From assembly GCA_041666845.1 (NCBI GenBank), contig JBAYGC010000005.1, positions 584-64,583 of the forward strand: DNA of 64,000 bases, read 5' to 3'. Positions 13,321-52,952 of the stretch are shown here, in pieces; position 1 is the first letter of the stretch; each line of letters opens with the position of its first letter. Source of the DNA: Patescibacteria group bacterium (GTDB taxonomy: Bacteria > Patescibacteriota > Patescibacteriia > UM-FILTER-42-10). A program made the position numbers and the translations under genes. The notes under the pieces are model-generated. The model saw nothing but the letters and a program-made list of their open reading frames with translations, ran no database searches and had not been told where the DNA came from.

Positions 13321-15081
13321 TTACCACCAAGCTAGTCTTTTCATATGTTCTTCGTATGCAGTGGAATTTTTTTGAAATTCGGTAAAAGACTTATTGAATA
13401 GGCCTGCAGATATTGGGCCCCAATGATCTTTGCTTTTATCCGCTTCATCTAACATCATTTTGAAAGGATTTTCACCGAAGCGTCTTTGATATTTCCAGGC
13501 AAATCTACCAGGAGGCCCCCAACCACTTTGATTGACGTGTGAATACTCAAGGGCAAAAAGTATTTCAAAATAATCGAATAGATATTCGTAATTTCTTCCT
13601 AAGAAAAGTAAGTCTTCTAAAGTTGGCTGTAAAGTAGTAAACAGTTGCTCGCTTCTCGGCGCATAATGCCTTTCTCGACCAGGTATCCACTTAAATGATT
13701 CATGGATTTCTGACAAATTTGCCCCCACTGGAGTAACAAGTGCTTCACTTTGATCCGACAGGGGCTCTGGTCTTACTGGAGTTTCAAAAATAATCTTTAG
13801 CGCACCATAATTCTGACTGGACAGGGCAGTAATACCTGCCGAATACATTAGTAGTTGAATTGGATACCAAGTAAATCGAAGCCATAGCACCGTTCCTGAT
13901 GAACCTTTATCGGCTTCAGCCAAACGTGTAAATATTTTATTGAGCTGTTGTAATTGTTCGCTGTTACCCCATTTAGCCAACAAGATAGAGATAACTTGTA
14001 GGTCTTTCGATAATTCTTCGTATTCACTCAAACGTTGAATAAATTGATCCTTTTGAGCAGGGATTCCCTGTACTGGGAAATTACGTAAATCAGTTTCATC
14101 CAAAAAATGGCGAATGTGCTTTGAAACAAAATCATCTAATTTGATCTTGTTTGAAGGAACTGATAGCAATTCTTTGATTGTGTCGGCGATCGGTGTTTTT
14201 GGTTCAAATGGAGTCTCAATTTGAGGTGATGTATTCACTAAGATATCAACCTCTCCAGGCTCACCCTTTTCAGATGATTCGGGCTGAGGGGAGGAATTCT
14301 TTTTTTGTTCTAATACAGAGGTGTCAAAAATAAATTCGCCGTCACCATCCACAAAACCATAATGAGGAGTTTGGTGTGAGTATTGATCATTAGCAACATG
14401 GTCAAACACGTATGCCATTACGCCACTTGCCGAGATAATGCCGTCTTTTGTTGAAGCTGCCCCATCCAAAGCGTCTAGTAAGTGAGAAGTAAAAATCGAA
14501 TGGTCCGGTCTTGTTCCGTTCCCATCTGCGACTGTCTCATTAGCTTTACCGGCAGTAAGTAGTTGGCGTGAATATCGTTTTAGCATGTCTCCAATAAAGC
14601 GCATACTGCCTAGTGATGGGGTACGAAGAAAGGCTAATCCCCCATAGCACGCATCCATAAGAAAGAATATGTGCTTGGCAGGAATTAAATCAGAATTTCT
14701 AGTAAATTCGTCCCATCGAATTAATGTATCAATTTCATCTGGTTTGCCTTCGGCTGGAACAAGATAGCCGACCTCACCTCTTTTTCCAGAAACAGTATGG
14801 CCATGACCAGCATAAAATACTATCAACCTGTCGTCGGGGAGAGTCTTTTTAAAATCAAGAAATGATTTATTGATGGTATCCTTTGTTGCGTCTTTGTCGA
14901 TTAGTAAGGAAATATTCGATTTTGGAAACTGAAACTTTTTTTCTAAAATATCGGCAACTGCTTCGGCATCACTTTTTGCATACCCTAAAGGAGGGGCAAA
15001 TTTGTATTGATTAATACCAATTATTAATGCCCAGCTATTTGTATATTCTGGTTGGTAGACTAGTTTTTCTTGGGAGGACAT
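13321..15081 (-). CDS. Caspase-like peptidase (C14/CHAT-type His-Cys dyad) with ~330-aa uncharacterised C-terminal domain
   Basis: The N-terminal ~250 aa have caspase-fold spacing: ALIIGINQY...VFYAGHGH (catalytic His)...FLMDACYGG (catalytic Cys). The C-terminal half has no recognisable motifs. Confidence 0.75.
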   Translation of the reverse strand: MSSQEKLVYQPEYTNSWALIIGINQYKFAPPLGYAKSDAEAVADILEKKFQFPKSNISLLIDKDATKDTINKSFLDFKKTLPDDRLIVFYAGHGHTVSGKRGEVGYLVPAEGKPDEIDTLIRWDEFTRNSDLIPAKHIFFLMDACYGGLAFLRTPSLGSMRFIGDMLKRYSRQLLTAGKANETVADGNGTRPDHSIFTSHLLDALDGAASTKDGIISASGVMAYVFDHVANDQYSHQTPHYGFVDGDGEFIFDTSVLEQKKNSSPQPESSEKGEPGEVDILVNTSPQIETPFEPKTPIADTIKELLSVPSNKIKLDDFVSKHIRHFLDETDLRNFPVQGIPAQKDQFIQRLSEYEELSKDLQVISILLAKWGNSEQLQQLNKIFTRLAEADKGSSGTVLWLRFTWYPIQLLMYSAGITALSSQNYGALKIIFETPVRPEPLSDQSEALVTPVGANLSEIHESFKWIPGRERHYAPRSEQLFTTLQPTLEDLLFLGRNYEYLFDYFEILFALEYSHVNQSGWGPPGRFAWKYQRRFGENPFKMMLDEADKSKDHWGPISAGLFNKSFTEFQKNSTAYEEHMKRLAWW

Positions 15082-17419: not shown

Positions 17420-17496
17420 CTCTTCAAAATCAAATTTATCTTTTAAATTTGGTACTATTTCAGTCTAGCACCAAGGTTATAGCCGGGCAATATGCA

Positions 17497-17630
17497 CAAA
17501 AAACCCGATTGCTATAATTCCAGACTAGTCGCTTGTCGGAGAGGGTTCTAAATAATTGTGGATTCCCGGGTCCTGCCTCGCCTTGATCCGGCGGAGCGGC
17601 GGCAAGGCGGGCAAGCCCGAGAATGACAGT
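17497..17630 (+). repeat. Partial R-module (17497-17545) plus P-module variant (17560-17630: GGATTCCCGG...GGCAAGCCCGAGAATGACA)
   Basis: Shares both ends with P copies at 18864 and 25975. The inner core is divergent. Followed by TTGACA at 17637. Confidence 0.6.
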
Positions 17631-17712
17631 AAATTATTGACACTAACGGGTGTTTTGTAGTAAAAGAAAGGCACCTGCGCCAACCACGTTTTCCAAATTG
17701 AGGGGGGTGTTT

Positions 17713-17916
17713 ATGTCTTCAGATCTTAGGGCGGCGGTGATCAAATACACTGCCAAACAGCTCGGCGTGAGCGAGGATCAGGTCACCTTGGACACGGTGA
17801 TTCCCGACATCCACAGTCTGGTCACATTCGTGGCCATCGAGACCGGTAAGATCAGTTTCGTCCAGGATGTCCGTGCGAAGCACACCGTGGCGAAGGCGAT
17901 CAAATCGTTCCTTTAG
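17713..17916 (+). CDS. Acyl-carrier-protein-like small protein (67 aa), compositionally foreign (GC ~53%)
   Basis: Strong SD GAGGGGGG 6 nt upstream of ATG. The sequence follows the ACP pattern (QLGVSEDQVTLDT...DIHSLVTFVAIE), with Ser in HSL aligned to the phosphopantetheine-Ser position of DSL. Immediately downstream is a terminator. Confidence 0.5.
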   Translation: MSSDLRAAVIKYTAKQLGVSEDQVTLDTVIPDIHSLVTFVAIETGKISFVQDVRAKHTVAKAIKSFL

Positions 17917-17918
17917 TA

Positions 17919-17947
17919 GGGGTCGGATGTCTAGACCCCTTTTTTTA
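17919..17947 (+). terminator. Rho-independent terminator
   Basis: GGGGTC-GGATGTCTA-GACCCC followed by TTTTTTT. Confidence 0.8.
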
Positions 17948-18845: not shown

Positions 18846-18863
18846 CGTTTTCTAAAAACTTAT

Positions 18864-18965
18864 GGATCCCCGGATCCCCGGCCGCCTAACTGCCGTTAGG
18901 CAGTGGGGCAGGCAAGCCCGAGGATGACAATCAAATAACAAGTCATTCCCGCGAAAGCGGGAATC
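18864..18965 (+). repeat. P-module: ~100-bp MITE-like element with terminal inverted repeats GGATCCCCGG...CGGGAATCC
   Basis: Near-identical to 25975-26098 (59-bp core GGATCCCCGGCCGCCTAACTGCCGTTAGGCAGTGGGGCAGGCAAGCCCGAG[G/A]ATGACA). An internal perfect 7-bp hairpin GCCTAAC-TGCC-GTTAGGC overlaps an alternative CTGCC-GTTA-GGCAG stem. Confidence 0.75.
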
Positions 18966-19076
18966 CATGGAATTAATTTGATGCTGATATTAGCTAAAAT
19001 TAGCCCATTTAGTATTGACCCCGTTAGAGGAGTTCCTCTAAGCGGGGTTGACAAAAACCCAGTTTAGGTGTATGCT
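18966..19076 (+). promoter_or_regulatory. Q-module with outward sigma70-type promoter (TTGACA-17-TATGCT) driving 19231..19803
   Basis: The element ATTAGCTAAAATTAGCCCA...TTGACCCCGTTAGAGGAGTTCCTCTAAGCGGGGTTGACAAAA contains a 12-bp inverted repeat and ends in TTGACA at 19048. The -10 TATGCT is at 19071. An inverted copy lies at 25866-25985. Confidence 0.6.
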
Positions 19077-19230
19077 GTCAGGTTTCATGGTTCATTGAAA
19101 TATCACTGCGTATATTGCCGTGGCGTCCAGATTAGAAAGAAGATCAGTCTAATTTGACCGCTCCGGCAATGTTGCCAAGCATGACATCCTAATGTCCAGT
19201 ATGGATTCCAAAGCCATGAAGGAGATTTCC

Positions 19231-19803
19231 ATGAAGAAGTCGTACATGACTCAGGACGACATCTACGTTGCCCAGGCGTGGAAGAGTCTGGCGAAGAAGC
19301 TGTTTCCTTGCCAGATCGTCGTGACGCTGGTCATGGTGACGCTGACCTACATCGCCCGGCGCTTCATCAATCACCACTATTTCGATCATGTGGTGACGGA
19401 TGCTGTCGCTGGCAACATCCCCAACGTGGTGATCGCGCTCGTAGCGTTCATCTTCGCCGGTGTGTTCGCGGTGGCTGTCGCGACCAACATCGCGTTCAGG
19501 AACGCACCGATTCGTACGATCACGCTCGTTCTGCTCACGTTCCTGGTACCTGCTGTGATCGGCGCCTTCTCCAGCTTCTGCTCGCACATCTATCTCCGGC
19601 CGGCGGATATCGTGTATGATTTCATTCCGGCGGTTCTGCTCATCGGGGTCTGGTGGTACACCAGCAACGCGCTCGATGAGGCCAGCGGATCGAACTTCGG
19701 TCAGAGCAAGGTCGCGAAAAGGATTCGAAACAGGATCGAGTACGCCTGTATCGGACAGTTCGCGATCTTCATGATTCTGATGGCCTACGTCATCGGGATT
19801 TAA
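19231..19803 (+). CDS. Polytopic membrane protein (5-6 TM), compositionally foreign (GC ~58%)
   Basis: SD AAGGAG lies 6 nt upstream of ATG at 19231. The track ORF starts 13 codons earlier, without an SD. The sequence is hydrophobic throughout. The antisense 211-aa ORF was rejected as a high-GC artefact. Confidence 0.65.
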   Translation: MKKSYMTQDDIYVAQAWKSLAKKLFPCQIVVTLVMVTLTYIARRFINHHYFDHVVTDAVAGNIPNVVIALVAFIFAGVFAVAVATNIAFRNAPIRTITLVLLTFLVPAVIGAFSSFCSHIYLRPADIVYDFIPAVLLIGVWWYTSNALDEASGSNFGQSKVAKRIRNRIEYACIGQFAIFMILMAYVIGI

Positions 19804-23169: not shown

Positions 23170-24258
23170 CTAGTTATCACTTTTTGCTGAAGCTTGTTGA
23201 ATCCGCCGACAGCGTTCCAGGTGATAGTCATAAAAAACACATCCTTCGCCAATACAGCTGGTACGTGGGCAGACGGTGGCAAGTTGGTTCGGATCAATCG
23301 CTTTTTTTAAAATTTCCTTAATTTCTTCTAAGCTCAATCTGGTTGGCGTCACGCCCTCCGGTGCGATCCCGCCGTTCTGAATGCTATTGGCAGTGGTGTC
23401 ATAATACCATTCTTCCACCCCCTTCAGGCGAGCGGATTTTGCCAGTTCATCAATGCTGGTGATTTCTAAGATAGCATCTTTCTTGCGTGCCTCTTCTATC
23501 CGGAGCATGACAGCGACGTCTTTGAGGTTGATGTCGCGCATTTGCCTGGTAATCAAGTTGGTGTGTCCCGTAGAAAGTCTTTGTACGACTACATCCGCTT
23601 TAGTGTCCGGATTTGCCCGCAAAAAACCCACCAGACTAATATCATCATTTTCTACGACCACGATTTTTACCAGTTTCTTACCCTGGAATACTTCAAACTG
23701 GTCGGTCTTTTTTTCCTGCTGGAGTTTTTCCCATTCCTGCGGAAGAACGGTCATTCTTTTGCGTTCCTCGCGGTAGTGTGAAACAAAAATCGGCATGACA
23801 ATATTGATAATCTTCTGCGGCTCACTTTGGTATTCGCGGTTCAGGTTCATAATCAGGCCGGAAAGGCCGAAAGCCCGGTCGATCGGGTCGCTCGAGATAA
23901 TCCCTTTTCCTTCCAGATCGTCTCTTTTGACATAAGTAATCAGTTTCTTCAGTGCTGGGTCATTTTCCACACCTAGGAATTTTGCCACCAAAGTAGTGGC
24001 ACATTCTCCCGTGTTATCTTTACCGCCTTCCTCGGTGTGGTGGTCAAATTTTCCGCCACCCATGTCGATGAGTAAAATACCCTCGCTTTCCAGTTCATCA
24101 GTATTCCTGCCTTCCGGAACACTGTTCCAGAATTCAATCTTGCTGTTTCTAACCCCCGGGAACTTTTCTTCGCCAAAAAGCTTCAATAACATAATCGCTA
24201 CGATATTGTCCGGATGCGGACGGGGAAAGATTACGATTGTATGGATTGGTTGGGACAT
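23170..24258 (-). CDS. MYG1/UPF0160-family metal-dependent hydrolase (putative 3'-5' exoribonuclease) with C-terminal Cys-rich zinc-ribbon
   Basis: N-terminal H-P-D-N-I-V-A-x-x-LL matches the MYG1 motif H-x-D-E-A-L-A-x-x-LL. LLIDMGGGKFDHH matches MYG1 VVDVGGEYD...YDHHQ. C-terminus is CPRTSCIGEGCVFYDYHLERC. Host-like GC. Confidence 0.6.
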   Translation of the reverse strand: MSQPIHTIVIFPRPHPDNIVAIMLLKLFGEEKFPGVRNSKIEFWNSVPEGRNTDELESEGILLIDMGGGKFDHHTEEGGKDNTGECATTLVAKFLGVENDPALKKLITYVKRDDLEGKGIISSDPIDRAFGLSGLIMNLNREYQSEPQKIINIVMPIFVSHYREERKRMTVLPQEWEKLQQEKKTDQFEVFQGKKLVKIVVVENDDISLVGFLRANPDTKADVVVQRLSTGHTNLITRQMRDINLKDVAVMLRIEEARKKDAILEITSIDELAKSARLKGVEEWYYDTTANSIQNGGIAPEGVTPTRLSLEEIKEILKKAIDPNQLATVCPRTSCIGEGCVFYDYHLERCRRIQQASAKSDN

Positions 24259-24560: not shown

Positions 24561-25616
24561 CTAGCGGATGGTTTCCTTCACCAGGTCGATGAAGGTCTCC
24601 GCGCGCCGGCCGGTCGGAGTGGTGTTGCGAGCGCCACCCGAACCGTTGAGGATCGCGTTGATCCTCGTGTCATAGAACCAGAGGTCCTTCGCGTCACGGC
24701 CGTCGGTGCGGTAGGCACTCTCGGTCGCGATGATGACGTCGTACAGTCGGTTCAGGTTGATCCGCGGCTGGACCCGGTTGGAGGTCAGGATGACGATCCG
24801 CTTGGAACGACTGACTACGATGATCAGGTCGACCCGACCATCGTTGAGGAGGGCGCGGGGGACACGGGTGTCGTCGGTGTGGATCAACACACCGCGTTGA
24901 TCCCGACCACTGGACTTGAAGACGAACTTCGTCGTGTCCTTGTGGTCGAGGATGTCGATCGCCTTGTCCTTGGCCACCTCGTTGGCGGCCTTGCACTTGG
25001 CGAACACCTCGCGCCACCAACGAGCCTCGCGGAGGATCTCACTGTCGGTGGCGCCGGTGATCATCAGGTTACGGATGTAGCCTGCCATACACCAGGGGGA
25101 CTCGTGGTTGCCCAGATGCTGGACGAGCGTCTGGACGTCGGGATGCCGACGGTCCACGGGGACCTTCAGCTCCTTGCCGATGCTGTTGACGTAGGCGTCG
25201 ATCACGCGGAAGATCCGCGAGATGACGGTCATGGGGGCATACCCTTGCTTGTACATCTCCCGAAGGAGCCATACGAGCGAGTAGGGCAGACCCTTAAGTC
25301 CACCCGTCTCGTTGTTCTCGTTGCAGATCGCAACGAGCGGGATCAGGCGGTGACTGCGAACCTTCAGGGTCTCGGCGACGATCTCCGTCGCGGAACCCTT
25401 ACCGGCCACTTGGTACTTGTACGGACCGATGTCGATGATGAACATGCGGTCCCGCTGCCACTCGTCGATCTGGGACTGTTCCGGCTGGAACTCGCCCGAG
25501 AGCACGAGGTTGAGGTCTTCGAGCTTCGTGACCGTGAACCTGCAGTACAGGTACAGGGCGACGATCTTGTCGAACACCGGACGAGCGGGGATGACGACGC
25601 CAGTAAACCGCTTCAT
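24561..25616 (-). CDS. Divergent, probably catalytically inactive paralogue of the adjacent MYG1/UPF0160-like protein (GC ~60%)
   Basis: Collinear with 23170..24258 (PARP/FPRP N-terminus, FIIDIG vs LLIDMG, FYDTRINAILNGSGGARNTTPTGR vs YYDTTANSIQNGGIAPEGVTPTR). It lacks both His motifs (VFD for HPD, GPYKYQ for GGGKFDHH). Strong SD AAGGAG sits 6 nt upstream of ATG at 25616. The antisense 407-aa ORF was rejected. Confidence 0.7.
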   Translation of the reverse strand: MKRFTGVVIPARPVFDKIVALYLYCRFTVTKLEDLNLVLSGEFQPEQSQIDEWQRDRMFIIDIGPYKYQVAGKGSATEIVAETLKVRSHRLIPLVAICNENNETGGLKGLPYSLVWLLREMYKQGYAPMTVISRIFRVIDAYVNSIGKELKVPVDRRHPDVQTLVQHLGNHESPWCMAGYIRNLMITGATDSEILREARWWREVFAKCKAANEVAKDKAIDILDHKDTTKFVFKSSGRDQRGVLIHTDDTRVPRALLNDGRVDLIIVVSRSKRIVILTSNRVQPRINLNRLYDVIIATESAYRTDGRDAKDLWFYDTRINAILNGSGGARNTTPTGRRAETFIDLVKETIR

Positions 25617-25865
25617 GGCTTTCTCCTTCGGCCAGAAGTAGGTGCACATGTGTCTCGGGAATCGAGACGGTCATGTTTTCAAGGAGCGGATCTCCTTGTT
25701 GGAGCCCGCGATCACTTACAGTGATCCTAGGCTCAAACAAAAAGCTTTCAGTGTACACATGGAGAGACTCTGAAAGCGCTGAATGTTGACATAGCTCTCT
25801 CCTCTGTCCTCCGTAGTGCCGCGAATGCGGTACGAAGGAGTGACAGAATTCTATGTTAACAGGCC

Positions 25866-25985
25866 AGTATACACCCAAAAGGGGGTTTTGTCAACCCCGT
25901 TAGAGAAACTTCTCTAACGGGGTCAAGACTGTGTGGGCTAATTTTAGCTAATGTTAGCAATTAATTAATTTGATGGATTCCCGGA
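25866..25985 (-). promoter_or_regulatory. Inverted Q-module with promoter TTGACA-17-TATACT pointing leftward toward 24561..25616
   Basis: Its reverse complement aligns with 18966-19056. -35 is at 25889-25894 and -10 at 25866-25871, both on the minus strand. Confidence 0.6.
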
Positions 25986-39996: not shown

Positions 39997-40497
39997 TTAT
40001 TTCCCAAACAGCTTCTTGCGAAGCTCGTAGAAATTGACCACGATCGTGTAGAAAAGAACGTCGGCGAGCACCTTGCCCACCAGCACGCCGAGTAGCATGC
40101 CGAGCATCCCATCCATCATGATTGACTGAGAAGCCAGCATCAATGATGGCCGGATGACTGCGCTGTCAGCGAACTCTGCTGGTCCGTATTCCCAGACCAG
40201 ATTCCAGAAGGTGATCCAGGCAATCCGCCAAGCTGAGGTGTTCTCCCGCCGGTGGAGACGAATCTCCCGGACAATGGCGATGCCGTAGAAACCGACGTTC
40301 TCGCCAACCGTTCCGGCGTAGGAGATGATGATGGGGTTCTTGGTGAAAATCTGAGCAATTATGGCGCCCAGAATGGCTGTGGCCGTCCCGAGGATTTCCT
40401 GCGGAAGATACCGCCGGATCCATTCAGTAATCTTCTGCTTTGCCTTCAGAAGAAACCGTTTGGTGTTCTCGGTCAGCTTGTGCCTTAGTTGTGGCAC
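39997..40497 (-). CDS. Small 4-TM membrane protein, compositionally foreign (GC ~54%)
   Basis: GTG start with a GGGGA SD. Has its own TTGACA-17-TACAAT promoter and its own terminator. Unrelated to the flanking trpS and surface-protein genes. Confidence 0.65.
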   Translation of the reverse strand: MPQLRHKLTENTKRFLLKAKQKITEWIRRYLPQEILGTATAILGAIIAQIFTKNPIIISYAGTVGENVGFYGIAIVREIRLHRRENTSAWRIAWITFWNLVWEYGPAEFADSAVIRPSLMLASQSIMMDGMLGMLLGVLVGKVLADVLFYTIVVNFYELRKKLFGK

Positions 40498-51816: not shown

Positions 51817-52131
51817 CTAGAAGCCATAGGACCTATGGCGGAACGGGTAGTGCAATGGATTATAATCGTCGGAAGGGTCTCCCTTAAAGGGCGGGATGAC
51901 TTCGCGTTCGTACGGCTTGGGTGCGAGGTTCCCGGCCTTGCCACAGGCTGAGGGCGATTCGCGGATGATCTCCGCGCCGTGCTTGTCGTAGAGGACGCCG
52001 TGATCCCAGCGCCACGGCAGAGGGTGTGCCTCGATGGTGGCGGGCTTGAGCATCTTGCGACGGAGTTGCTTGCGCCGACCCTGAGCTGACCGGTCGCGAA
52101 GTTCAGGTTTGTTGTTCTTGTGCCTGGTCAT
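51817..52131 (-). CDS. Hypothetical 104-aa basic protein in high-GC island
   Basis: SD GGAGGGG 8 nt upstream of ATG. Arg/Lys-rich N-terminus. GC ~58%. Confidence 0.5.
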   Translation of the reverse strand: MTRHKNNKPELRDRSAQGRRKQLRRKMLKPATIEAHPLPWRWDHGVLYDKHGAEIIRESPSACGKAGNLAPKPYEREVIPPFKGDPSDDYNPLHYPFRHRSYGF

Positions 52132-52487
52132 TGCTTTTCCCCTCCGGTTATCTGAAACACAAAAACGACTGAAGAACGACTTGCTAATCCTAGTCCCGAC
52201 TATTTATTTTGTCAATAAAAAACACCTGAGCTGTTATGCAGAGGTGGCTTTTTTTGTTTTTTTAAGATCGTCCTTTTTGATATTATGAGTCAGGTATTGA
52301 CACTTGCGATTAACTGTGCTATATTTCCGCGTTCAATACTCTTAGATTAATGAGTCAATTACGGTTTTCTCTGCGCGTATTTTACTTAGAAATACTTACA
52401 GAGAAGACCATAACAAATGTGGTTTTCCTCTTTGCCGTGTTGGCGAGGAGAAAGCTTTCTCGAAAGAGGAGGCGAAGGAGCATTGTG

Positions 52488-52952
52488 ATGATCAACACGT
52501 TGCGTTCCGTGGCTCACCTGCAGCGGGAGATCGGCGACGATCTCTTCGAGGCGCTGGTAAGTTCGGATCACACGGAAGCGGTCCGGAGATTCGCCAAAAA
52601 GTTGGCGAAGATCTTGCCGACCAAGATCACGGTCGGCGGCAGAACATACGAGATTCTCCCCATCCTTCGGGAGGGGGAAGAGAGCGTCAAGGGCGACATT
52701 GTGGTCGCCCGTGCCAGGGAAATGAATGCCCATCTCGGCATAGACGACGGCGAGCATCTACTGGCCCACCGAGACGAGCTTCCCGCCGTCTTGCGCGGTC
52801 AGGGGATCGTCTTCGTCTTCACCGACTGGTGTCACCCCGAGGACCCTAAGTCTGTCGCCCGTGTCTATCATATCGGCGGCGACTGGACTCTGGGCTGGGA
52901 CGGGCTCCACTACGACTTCAGTGACGATACTCGGGTGCTCCGCCGCAAGTAA
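52488..52952 (+). CDS. Hypothetical 154-aa protein in high-GC island
   Basis: SD AAGGAG 7 nt upstream of ATG. The track ORF starts earlier but has no SD there. GC ~60%. Confidence 0.5.
   Translation: MINTLRSVAHLQREIGDDLFEALVSSDHTEAVRRFAKKLAKILPTKITVGGRTYEILPILREGEESVKGDIVVARAREMNAHLGIDDGEHLLAHRDELPAVLRGQGIVFVFTDWCHPEDPKSVARVYHIGGDWTLGWDGLHYDFSDDTRVLRRK

Follow-up and report, generated by a model that had tools for sequence, protein, structure and literature searches.

A small Patescibacteria protein with a probable carrier-type fold and an apparently lost cofactor site

Type II acyl carrier proteins (ACPs) are uniformly very acidic, with an isoelectric point (pI) of about 4, and their helix II is a conserved acidic recognition helix. 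The core motif of peptidyl carrier proteins (PCPs) is GGHSL. Phage 'morons' are autonomous promoter-gene-terminator insertions of atypical composition. These systems are the closest described points of comparison for a small gene at 17713–17916 (+) in a 64,000-nucleotide stretch of a Patescibacteria group bacterium (assembly GCA_041666845.1, contig JBAYGC010000005.1), hereafter called the window. The open reading frame (ORF) runs over 67 codons from an ATG at 17713 to a TAG stop at 17914–17916, and its product, P0001, has the sequence MSSDLRAAVIKYTAKQLGVSEDQVTLDTVIPDIHSLVTFVAIETGKISFVQDVRAKHTVAKAIKSFL; the exact sequence is on record as a hypothetical protein on a 224.9-kb contig of a Patescibacteria metagenome-assembled genome (MAG). 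An earlier note had described P0001 as an orphan ACP-like protein with HSL in place of the phosphopantetheinylated DSL. The reading somewhat favoured here is that P0001 is a real small cytoplasmic protein, ACP-derived or convergent, that has lost the cofactor site and most likely serves as a stand-alone protein-binding module.

The structure of P0001 was predicted with AlphaFold2 from a 19-sequence family alignment, giving a predicted local distance difference test score (pLDDT) of 92.9 and a predicted template modelling score (pTM) of 0.80. The model consists of helices 3–17, 33–44 and 59–66 with a short bridge from residues 29–30 to 57–58, and helix III is not present. When this model was compared with the PDB using Foldseek, all 50 of the 50 matches listed were ACP- or PCP-containing entries, with template modelling (TM) scores of 0.55–0.70; against BFVD, phage carrier proteins came out on top, none of them significant. 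Comparison of the family profile with PDB sequences returned proteins named ACP for 25 of 30 matches (best E 0.007), and hhalign against a four-row ACP alignment gave a probability of 87.8% (E 3.3e-6) over 65 columns. A carrier-type helical bundle is present in P0001, an ACP fold is very likely and a remote homology to ACPs is probable. The ACP-fold pattern read from the letters by the earlier note is thus borne out by the structural and profile comparisons. The match to PF00550 that it had proposed looking for did not appear, as neither P0001 nor any of the 19 family members matched PF00550 or the NCBIfam ACP models even at E <= 10, and the ACP signal came only from remote profile comparisons.

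A HMMER search of 1.84 billion cluster representatives returned 20 matches to P0001 at E <= 1e-3. Eighteen of these are proteins of 45–72 aa, nearly all of 62–72 aa, that align over most of P0001; the other two are repetitive large proteins and were regarded as spurious. Three family members carry a source name, and all three are called Patescibacteria. About 20 clusters, diverging to as little as about 31% identity, preserve both the reading frame and its length. The closest homologue, at locus L001, shares 73% aa identity with P0001 at a ratio of nonsynonymous to synonymous substitution rates (dN/dS) of 0.24, the differences falling 11/11/20 over the three codon positions, and a second pair of loci (L015 and L016) gave a dN/dS of 0.20. 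The ratio rises to 0.55–0.71 between P0001 and two tandem paralogues at locus L003 (7758–7967 and 8001–8207) and to 0.93 between those paralogues themselves; these changes cluster in the helix II region and reflect either diversification or relaxed constraint after duplication. The P0001 ORF is almost certainly a real gene. The lack of an ACP-fold match and the lack of a conserved frame, either of which the earlier note would have taken as grounds for withdrawal, did not come about. No usable family was found for P0001 and all 19 family members in Pfam, NCBIfam, PHROGs or PADLOC; the best library matches, of uncertain relevance, were Jag_N (E 0.019) and phrog_36590 (E 0.008). A scan of GTDB genomes gave no close relative, a metagenome scan gave nothing beyond the already found L004 contig, and a search of the literature on serine-less ACP-like proteins and on DUF1493 found nothing usable.

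On sequence grounds, every hallmark of a functional carrier is lost in P0001, and the protein is very probably not a working carrier. The reading implied earlier, with HSL as a form of the DSL attachment motif, found no support. Within the family the Ser35 column contains S, R, A, C, H, D, N, K and L, and only one of the 67 columns exceeds its entropy (3.01 bits). Serine is found there in four of the 19 members (P0001, P0002, P0014 and P0018), HSL only in P0001 and P0002, and no other conserved serine exists at the start of helix II in the family; the two L003 paralogues have Cys and Ala at this position. In all three full-length profile alignments, either the DSL(D) segment of the ACPs falls in a deletion of 4–5 residues or the ACP serine lies opposite Ile33, and it is never placed on Ser35. 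Helix II of the model begins at residue 33, so that Ser35 lies within the helix and not at its N-terminus. P0001 has a pI of 8.1 and a net charge of +1 (−8 to +5 across the family) and is rather hydrophobic, with a grand average of hydropathy (GRAVY) of +0.30.

Conservation within the family is centred on helix I, the 'VT-L-x-T-x-IPDI' loop and the last helix ('YTVxxAIxxF'). Mean column entropy is 2.36 bits over residues 34–56, the helix II region, compared to 1.35 over residues 9–33 and 1.44 over residues 57–66. The helical bundle would have descended from, or converged tightly on, that of the acyl and peptidyl carrier proteins, and would have lost the phosphopantetheine-site loop ((D/H)S(L/I)), the acidic recognition helix II and helix III. 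P0001 would then need no prosthetic group and would act as a protein-binding module in its own right. The face formed by helix I, the 'T-x-IPDI' loop and the C-terminal helix may provide a constant contact, and the helix II region, which evolves fast and is rather hydrophobic, may serve for specificity or self-association. That P0001 works as a binding module is, taken by itself, a tentative proposal. Patescibacteria are reported to be without fatty-acid synthesis (PMC12455944), and loss of the active site is coherent with this report.

Several points weigh against this interpretation. The ACP alignment used with hhalign had only four rows, of which two (E. coli AcpP and B. subtilis AcpA) were entered by hand and two were taken from the PDB profile matches; against E. 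coli AcpP alone the probability was 19.8%, covering helix I only. The single-sequence link of P0001 to ACP is weak (E 0.57), and the AlphaFold2 model is based on just 19 sequences. The family is possibly larger, a 67-aa phmmer query being of limited reach. The D-I-H-S-L of P0001 and its closest homologue is similar to GGHSL, the PCP core motif. The high dN/dS between the paralogues may represent relaxed constraint and not diversification.

The P0001 gene has the layout of an autonomous monocistronic transcription unit, with a promoter-like site, a strong Shine-Dalgarno (SD) sequence and a terminator. The SD sequence GAGGGGGG at 17700–17707 lies 5 nt ahead of the ATG, and an intrinsic terminator follows the stop codon at 17918–17947 (+), with a 7-bp stem (17918–17924 / 17934–17940), a 9-nt loop and a run of seven T at 17940–17946. 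The compact unit of SD, 67-aa gene and terminator pointed out by the earlier note was therefore found as described. The consensus terminator scanner does not list this hairpin because its 9-nt loop exceeds the scanner's limit of 8 nt. A TTGACA hexamer at 17637–17642 opens a promoter-like region at 17637–17712 (+), recognised by its sequence, that continues as a conserved 5' leader ending in the SD sequence GAGGGGGG; the same leader stands ahead of the first gene of the L003 operon. L003 retains the hexamer together with the entire 75-nt leader, and L001 also retains the −35, but the promoter scanner accepted no −10 hexamer upstream of the gene and the site is for this reason called promoter-like. 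Both the SD sequence and the terminator are conserved among related loci, the terminator hairpin being nearly unchanged in L003 (8208–8240) and retained in L001 with an altered stem sequence. A 5'-leader hairpin masking the SD sequence, as in a thermometer or riboswitch, was considered and dropped, as folding was no better than that of shuffled sequences (z −0.8 to −1.1). No RNA family was found by Rfam in the whole window. An ORF of 99 aa is open antisense to the P0001 gene and is a by-product of the GC-rich sequence.

The nearest relative of the locus, L003/L004, comes from a Patescibacteria MAG, and its right flank (DUF1048, PadR and a GNAT gene) is syntenic with that of the window. In L003 the shared leader is followed by an 86-aa ORF with an acidic tail, the two tandem ACP-like copies and the same terminator, and a 90-aa ORF upstream and a 129-aa ORF downstream of this operon are also GC-rich. 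In the window the leader is joined straight to the single ACP-like gene. Between the window and L003, the ACP-like genes are 64–67% identical at the aa level and the syntenic flanks 66–86%. Because the ACP-like genes are no more similar than their flanks, the GC-rich island predates the split of the two genomes and is not a very recent transfer.

At L001 a 63-aa ORF precedes the ACP-like gene. Its C-terminus resembles the L003 acidic-tail protein by eye only, and BLAST gave no match between the two at E <= 1e-3. The acidic-tail proteins form an orphan family of 63–86 aa (L003 7440–7700, L001 1696–1887 and L021 6001–6258) ending in ...VER[IL]..[RP]S..GP[LM]...DDDD, for which no Pfam, PHROG or PADLOC match was found. 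An acidic-tail ORF as obligate partner was rejected, since the homologue P0025 adjoins an unrelated ORF in L021 in which the ACP-like gene is missing. A link to the DUF1048-PadR operon was also rejected, as the adjacency reflects only the synteny between the two relatives and recurs at none of the other loci. All-against-all comparison of the ORFs within +/-2.5 kb of the gene at nine loci revealed no recurrent neighbour gene; the P0001-family gene usually stands by itself, and often both flanking genes run in the opposite direction.

To the left of the gene, the ORF at 13321–15081 (−) encodes a 586-aa protein with an N-terminal Peptidase_C14 (caspase-like) domain that matches the PADLOC candidate defence system PDC-S65 (E 5.8e-40). 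It lies 2.6 kb upstream of the P0001 gene and is followed by three orphans. The 13.3–17.4 kb block of the window is replaced in L003 by HATPase_c_3 + DNA methylase, MerR, Fic and a MazG-like gene, and this region is a variable, defence-island-like hot spot. Other members of the family are situated after priA, near murG/ftsW/mraY, or adjoining IS110-type or DDE transposases. Two loci (L007 7780–8420 and L010 1068–1609) share a cassette that is 100% identical at the nucleotide level from position −73 through the gene and beyond, with unrelated left contexts and a breakpoint 73 nt upstream of the ATG, and a third contig has the cassette beside a DDE transposase.

Such surroundings would suit a role in a conflict system, which would be one particular form of binding: P0001 would act as an orphan immunity protein, antitoxin or anti-defence factor and neutralise a toxin or a defence effector by attaching to it, with helix II diversifying in an arms race. 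The position at the edge of a variable region, with the PDC-S65 candidate in the window and Fic, MazG-like and HATPase_c_3 + DNA methylase genes in the relative, is consistent with this role, as are the tandem duplication in L003 with its dN/dS near 0.9, the moron-like autonomy and atypical GC content of the unit, and the transposases beside homologues. However, the caspase-like gene is the only PADLOC match near P0001, with none for P0001 itself or for the operon partners in L003 and L001, and PHROGs offered no meaningful match. The INPHARED phages and PLSDB plasmids gave no match with tblastn, and neither did IMG/VR, for which the queries were the family alignment, P0001 itself and two further GC-rich ORFs. 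The nine loci showed no conserved adjacent toxin or partner, and several homologues lie amid housekeeping genes (priA, murG, ftsW/mraY). A role in conflict is on balance unlikely.

The composition of the gene sets it apart from the window. The ORF has a GC content of 54.4% and a GC content at third codon positions (GC3) of 0.75, third among 54 ORFs with a median of 0.47. The GC-richness stated earlier, about 53% against a host of about 40%, therefore stands for the gene, but the host lies nearer 43%, the window as a whole being at 43.4%. Six ORFs of the window have a GC3 of 0.70–0.86: 17713–17916, 19192–19803, 24561–25649 (−), 39997–40497 (−), 51817–52131 (−) and 52350–52952. None of the six has a Pfam family above threshold. 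Comparable clusters of GC-rich orphans occur in L003, L001 and L021 amid genes with a GC3 of 0.22–0.5, those of L021 being placed between rpsB/tsf and rpmE/prfA. Distant members of the P0001 family from lower-GC hosts are not GC-rich, and hence it is only the P0001 clade, and not the family as such, that is intrinsically so. The GC-rich orphans suggest that these Patescibacteria share a pool of accessory genes that came from a higher-GC source.

The neighbouring 362-aa orphan ORFs at 23170–24258 (−) and 24561–25649 (−) are distant homologues (30% identity over the 100 C-terminal residues, E 4e-6), one with a GC content of 46.5% and the other of 61%, which suggests a native copy next to a GC-rich xenologue. 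GC-rich membrane-protein ORFs at 19192–19803 in the window and 10090–10620 in L003 are syntenic with each other, and one and the same palindromic promoter-like element precedes both. With an identity of only 24%, compared to 86% for the adjoining PadR, they point to cassette replacement or very fast evolution.

Repeated and conserved DNA elements accompany the GC-rich genes. Directly upstream of the −35 hexamer, at 17551–17634, is the GC-rich palindromic repeat element ('P-variant') behind which the earlier note had placed the gene; as a DNA hairpin it reaches −26 kcal/mol (z = −5.4), and further copies of its arm are found at 18907 and 26018. The repeat family comprises 17551–17634, 18850–18965 and about 26018, with the pattern ...CCCGGG...GGC[AG]GGCAAGCCCGAG[AG]ATGACA, and related 'CCGGAATGACAG' elements flank the L001 homologue. 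At the left edge of the GC-rich unit lies a conserved block of ~45 bp, AGTCTAGCACCAAGGTTAT..GGGCAATA, at 17462–17510 (−). This block occurs once in the window and is conserved in L003 (6757–6800) and L001 (1453–1500); the minus-strand gene that it precedes is a different, unrelated one at each of the three loci. Read on that strand, the block is TTGCCC-N17-TGcTAGACT, and in the window it faces a divergent 310-aa membrane-protein gene; it may be an outward-facing promoter that travels with the GC-rich island. A second palindromic element, TTGACCCCGTT..AGGA.TTCC..AA.CGGGGTTGACA, is present in the window at 19015–19053 (+) and 25889–25902 (−) and in L003 at 6860, 9880 and 10749. In both genomes this TTGACCCCGTT...AACGGGGTTGACA palindrome lies 140–240 bp upstream of GC-rich ORFs, two in the window (19192+ and 25649−) and three in L003, and it looks like a shared promoter or operator of GC-rich cassettes.

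A broader proposal combines these observations. The P0001 gene would be one cassette in a pool, not described before, of orphan ORFs that have a high GC3, drive their own transcription and pass between Patescibacteria genomes occurring together. Some of them would share the palindromic TTGACCCCGTT...AACGGGGTTGACA promoter or operator, and the serine-less ACP fold would have been recruited there for conflict between bacteria or with phages, as a specificity module that diversifies. The variable helix II, the tandem paralogue dN/dS near 0.9 and the position beside variable defence genes are the reasons for raising it; as a whole it is distinctly unlikely.

The window was also inspected for the partners of a genuine divergent carrier, in which Ser35 of D-I-H-S-L would be modified by a phosphopantetheinyl transferase (PPTase) encoded elsewhere and the protein would shuttle an acyl, aminoacyl or peptidyl group for distant enzymes. 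Its genes include rpoBC, ftsK, recA, efp, ssb, rpsF, uvrC, uvrD, RNase J, iPGM, PGM, SHMT, folD, ychF and uvrA, together with a class I Trp/Tyr-type tRNA synthetase and a glutamate-racemase-like gene. Among the annotated ORFs there is no PPTase, fatty acid synthase (FAS), polyketide synthase (PKS), nonribosomal peptide synthetase (NRPS), adenylase or adenylating enzyme, ligase or Dlt gene, in agreement with the earlier remark that no synthase lies nearby, and no homologue's locus contains NRPS domains. The carrier fold itself, the serine of P0001, P0002, P0014 and P0018, and the reported horizontal acquisition of acpP by Patescibacteria (PMC12455944) would all fit a carrier. Against this stand the variability of the serine column, with Cys and Ala in the L003 paralogues, the alignment of the ACP serine to a deletion or to Ile33 with helix II starting two residues before Ser35, and a pI of 8.1 with a helix II that is not acidic and PF00550 unmatched. 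Because D-I-H-S-L resembles the PCP core GGHSL, modification restricted to the P0001 subclade keeps a small probability; a genuine carrier is otherwise improbable.

The ACP fold normally sequesters acyl chains, and P0001 could be an ACP-derived, non-covalent binder of lipids or fatty acids that chaperones scavenged acyl chains in a bacterium unable to make fatty acids. The rather hydrophobic character of P0001 would be in keeping with such a function, and Patescibacteria are reported to recycle host lipids (PMC12455944). However, the model lacks helix III, part of the acyl pocket of ACPs, and the helix II that lines this pocket is less conserved than any other part. Lipid genes are absent nearby, and a core lipid function would call for a much less sparse family, making a lipid binder very improbable. 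A leaderless or circular bacteriocin was rejected, as there are no transporter or immunity genes and the fold matches are carriers and not saposin-like bundles. That the ORF is non-functional, either open by chance in a GC-rich stretch that also leaves the 99-aa antisense frame open or a decaying remnant, is exceedingly improbable despite the few close homologues and the loss of the first gene of the ancestral operon, given the dN/dS of 0.24, the frame and length kept across the clusters, the conserved SD sequence and terminator and the confident fold prediction.

If the loss of the cofactor site in P0001 is true, it provides a bacterial case of a carrier fold kept after loss of that site, in a lineage reported to be without fatty-acid synthesis, and a small unannotated family with no Pfam or NCBIfam model gains a structural label. 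No long-standing question is resolved by this, and the function of P0001 stays inferred. The GC-rich, self-contained ORFs scattered in low-GC Patescibacteria chromosomes point to a shared accessory pool of reduced genomes, and this pool of GC3-rich cassettes may be a more useful lead than P0001 itself.

Compared to the morons of phages, the P0001 gene is likewise a single small ORF with a promoter-like site, SD sequence and terminator inserted between unrelated genes, its GC3 is far above that of its neighbours and its contexts vary between loci. Unlike morons, it resides in a bacterial chromosome amid housekeeping genes and not in a prophage, and no phage, plasmid or IMG/VR homologue was found for it. 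Its promoter-like site has no recognisable −10, and no mobility mechanism was found. A toxin-antitoxin or immunity pair is characterised by a conserved adjacent partner gene, which the nine loci do not show for P0001. With the type II ACPs (AcpP; PF00550 PP-binding), P0001 shares the carrier-type helical bundle. However, the DSL(D) segment is deleted in P0001 and the serine column hypervariable, helix II is hydrophobic and variable whereas that of ACPs is acidic and conserved, helix III is absent from the model, the pI is 8.1 in place of about 4, PF00550 is not matched and the 64 kb contain no PPTase or FAS context. The His-Ser pair that recalls the PCP or NRPS thiolation domain (GGHSL) is not conserved in the P0001 family, and no adenylation or condensation domains occur in the 64 kb around the gene. 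P0001 was not filed as an ACP or PCP because it shows neither a match to a family sequence model, nor a conserved serine, nor acidity with a conserved helix II, nor, in the case of a PCP, the enzyme context. The most fitting description of the P0001 family is that of a new serine-less branch, so far unannotated, within the carrier-fold superfamily.
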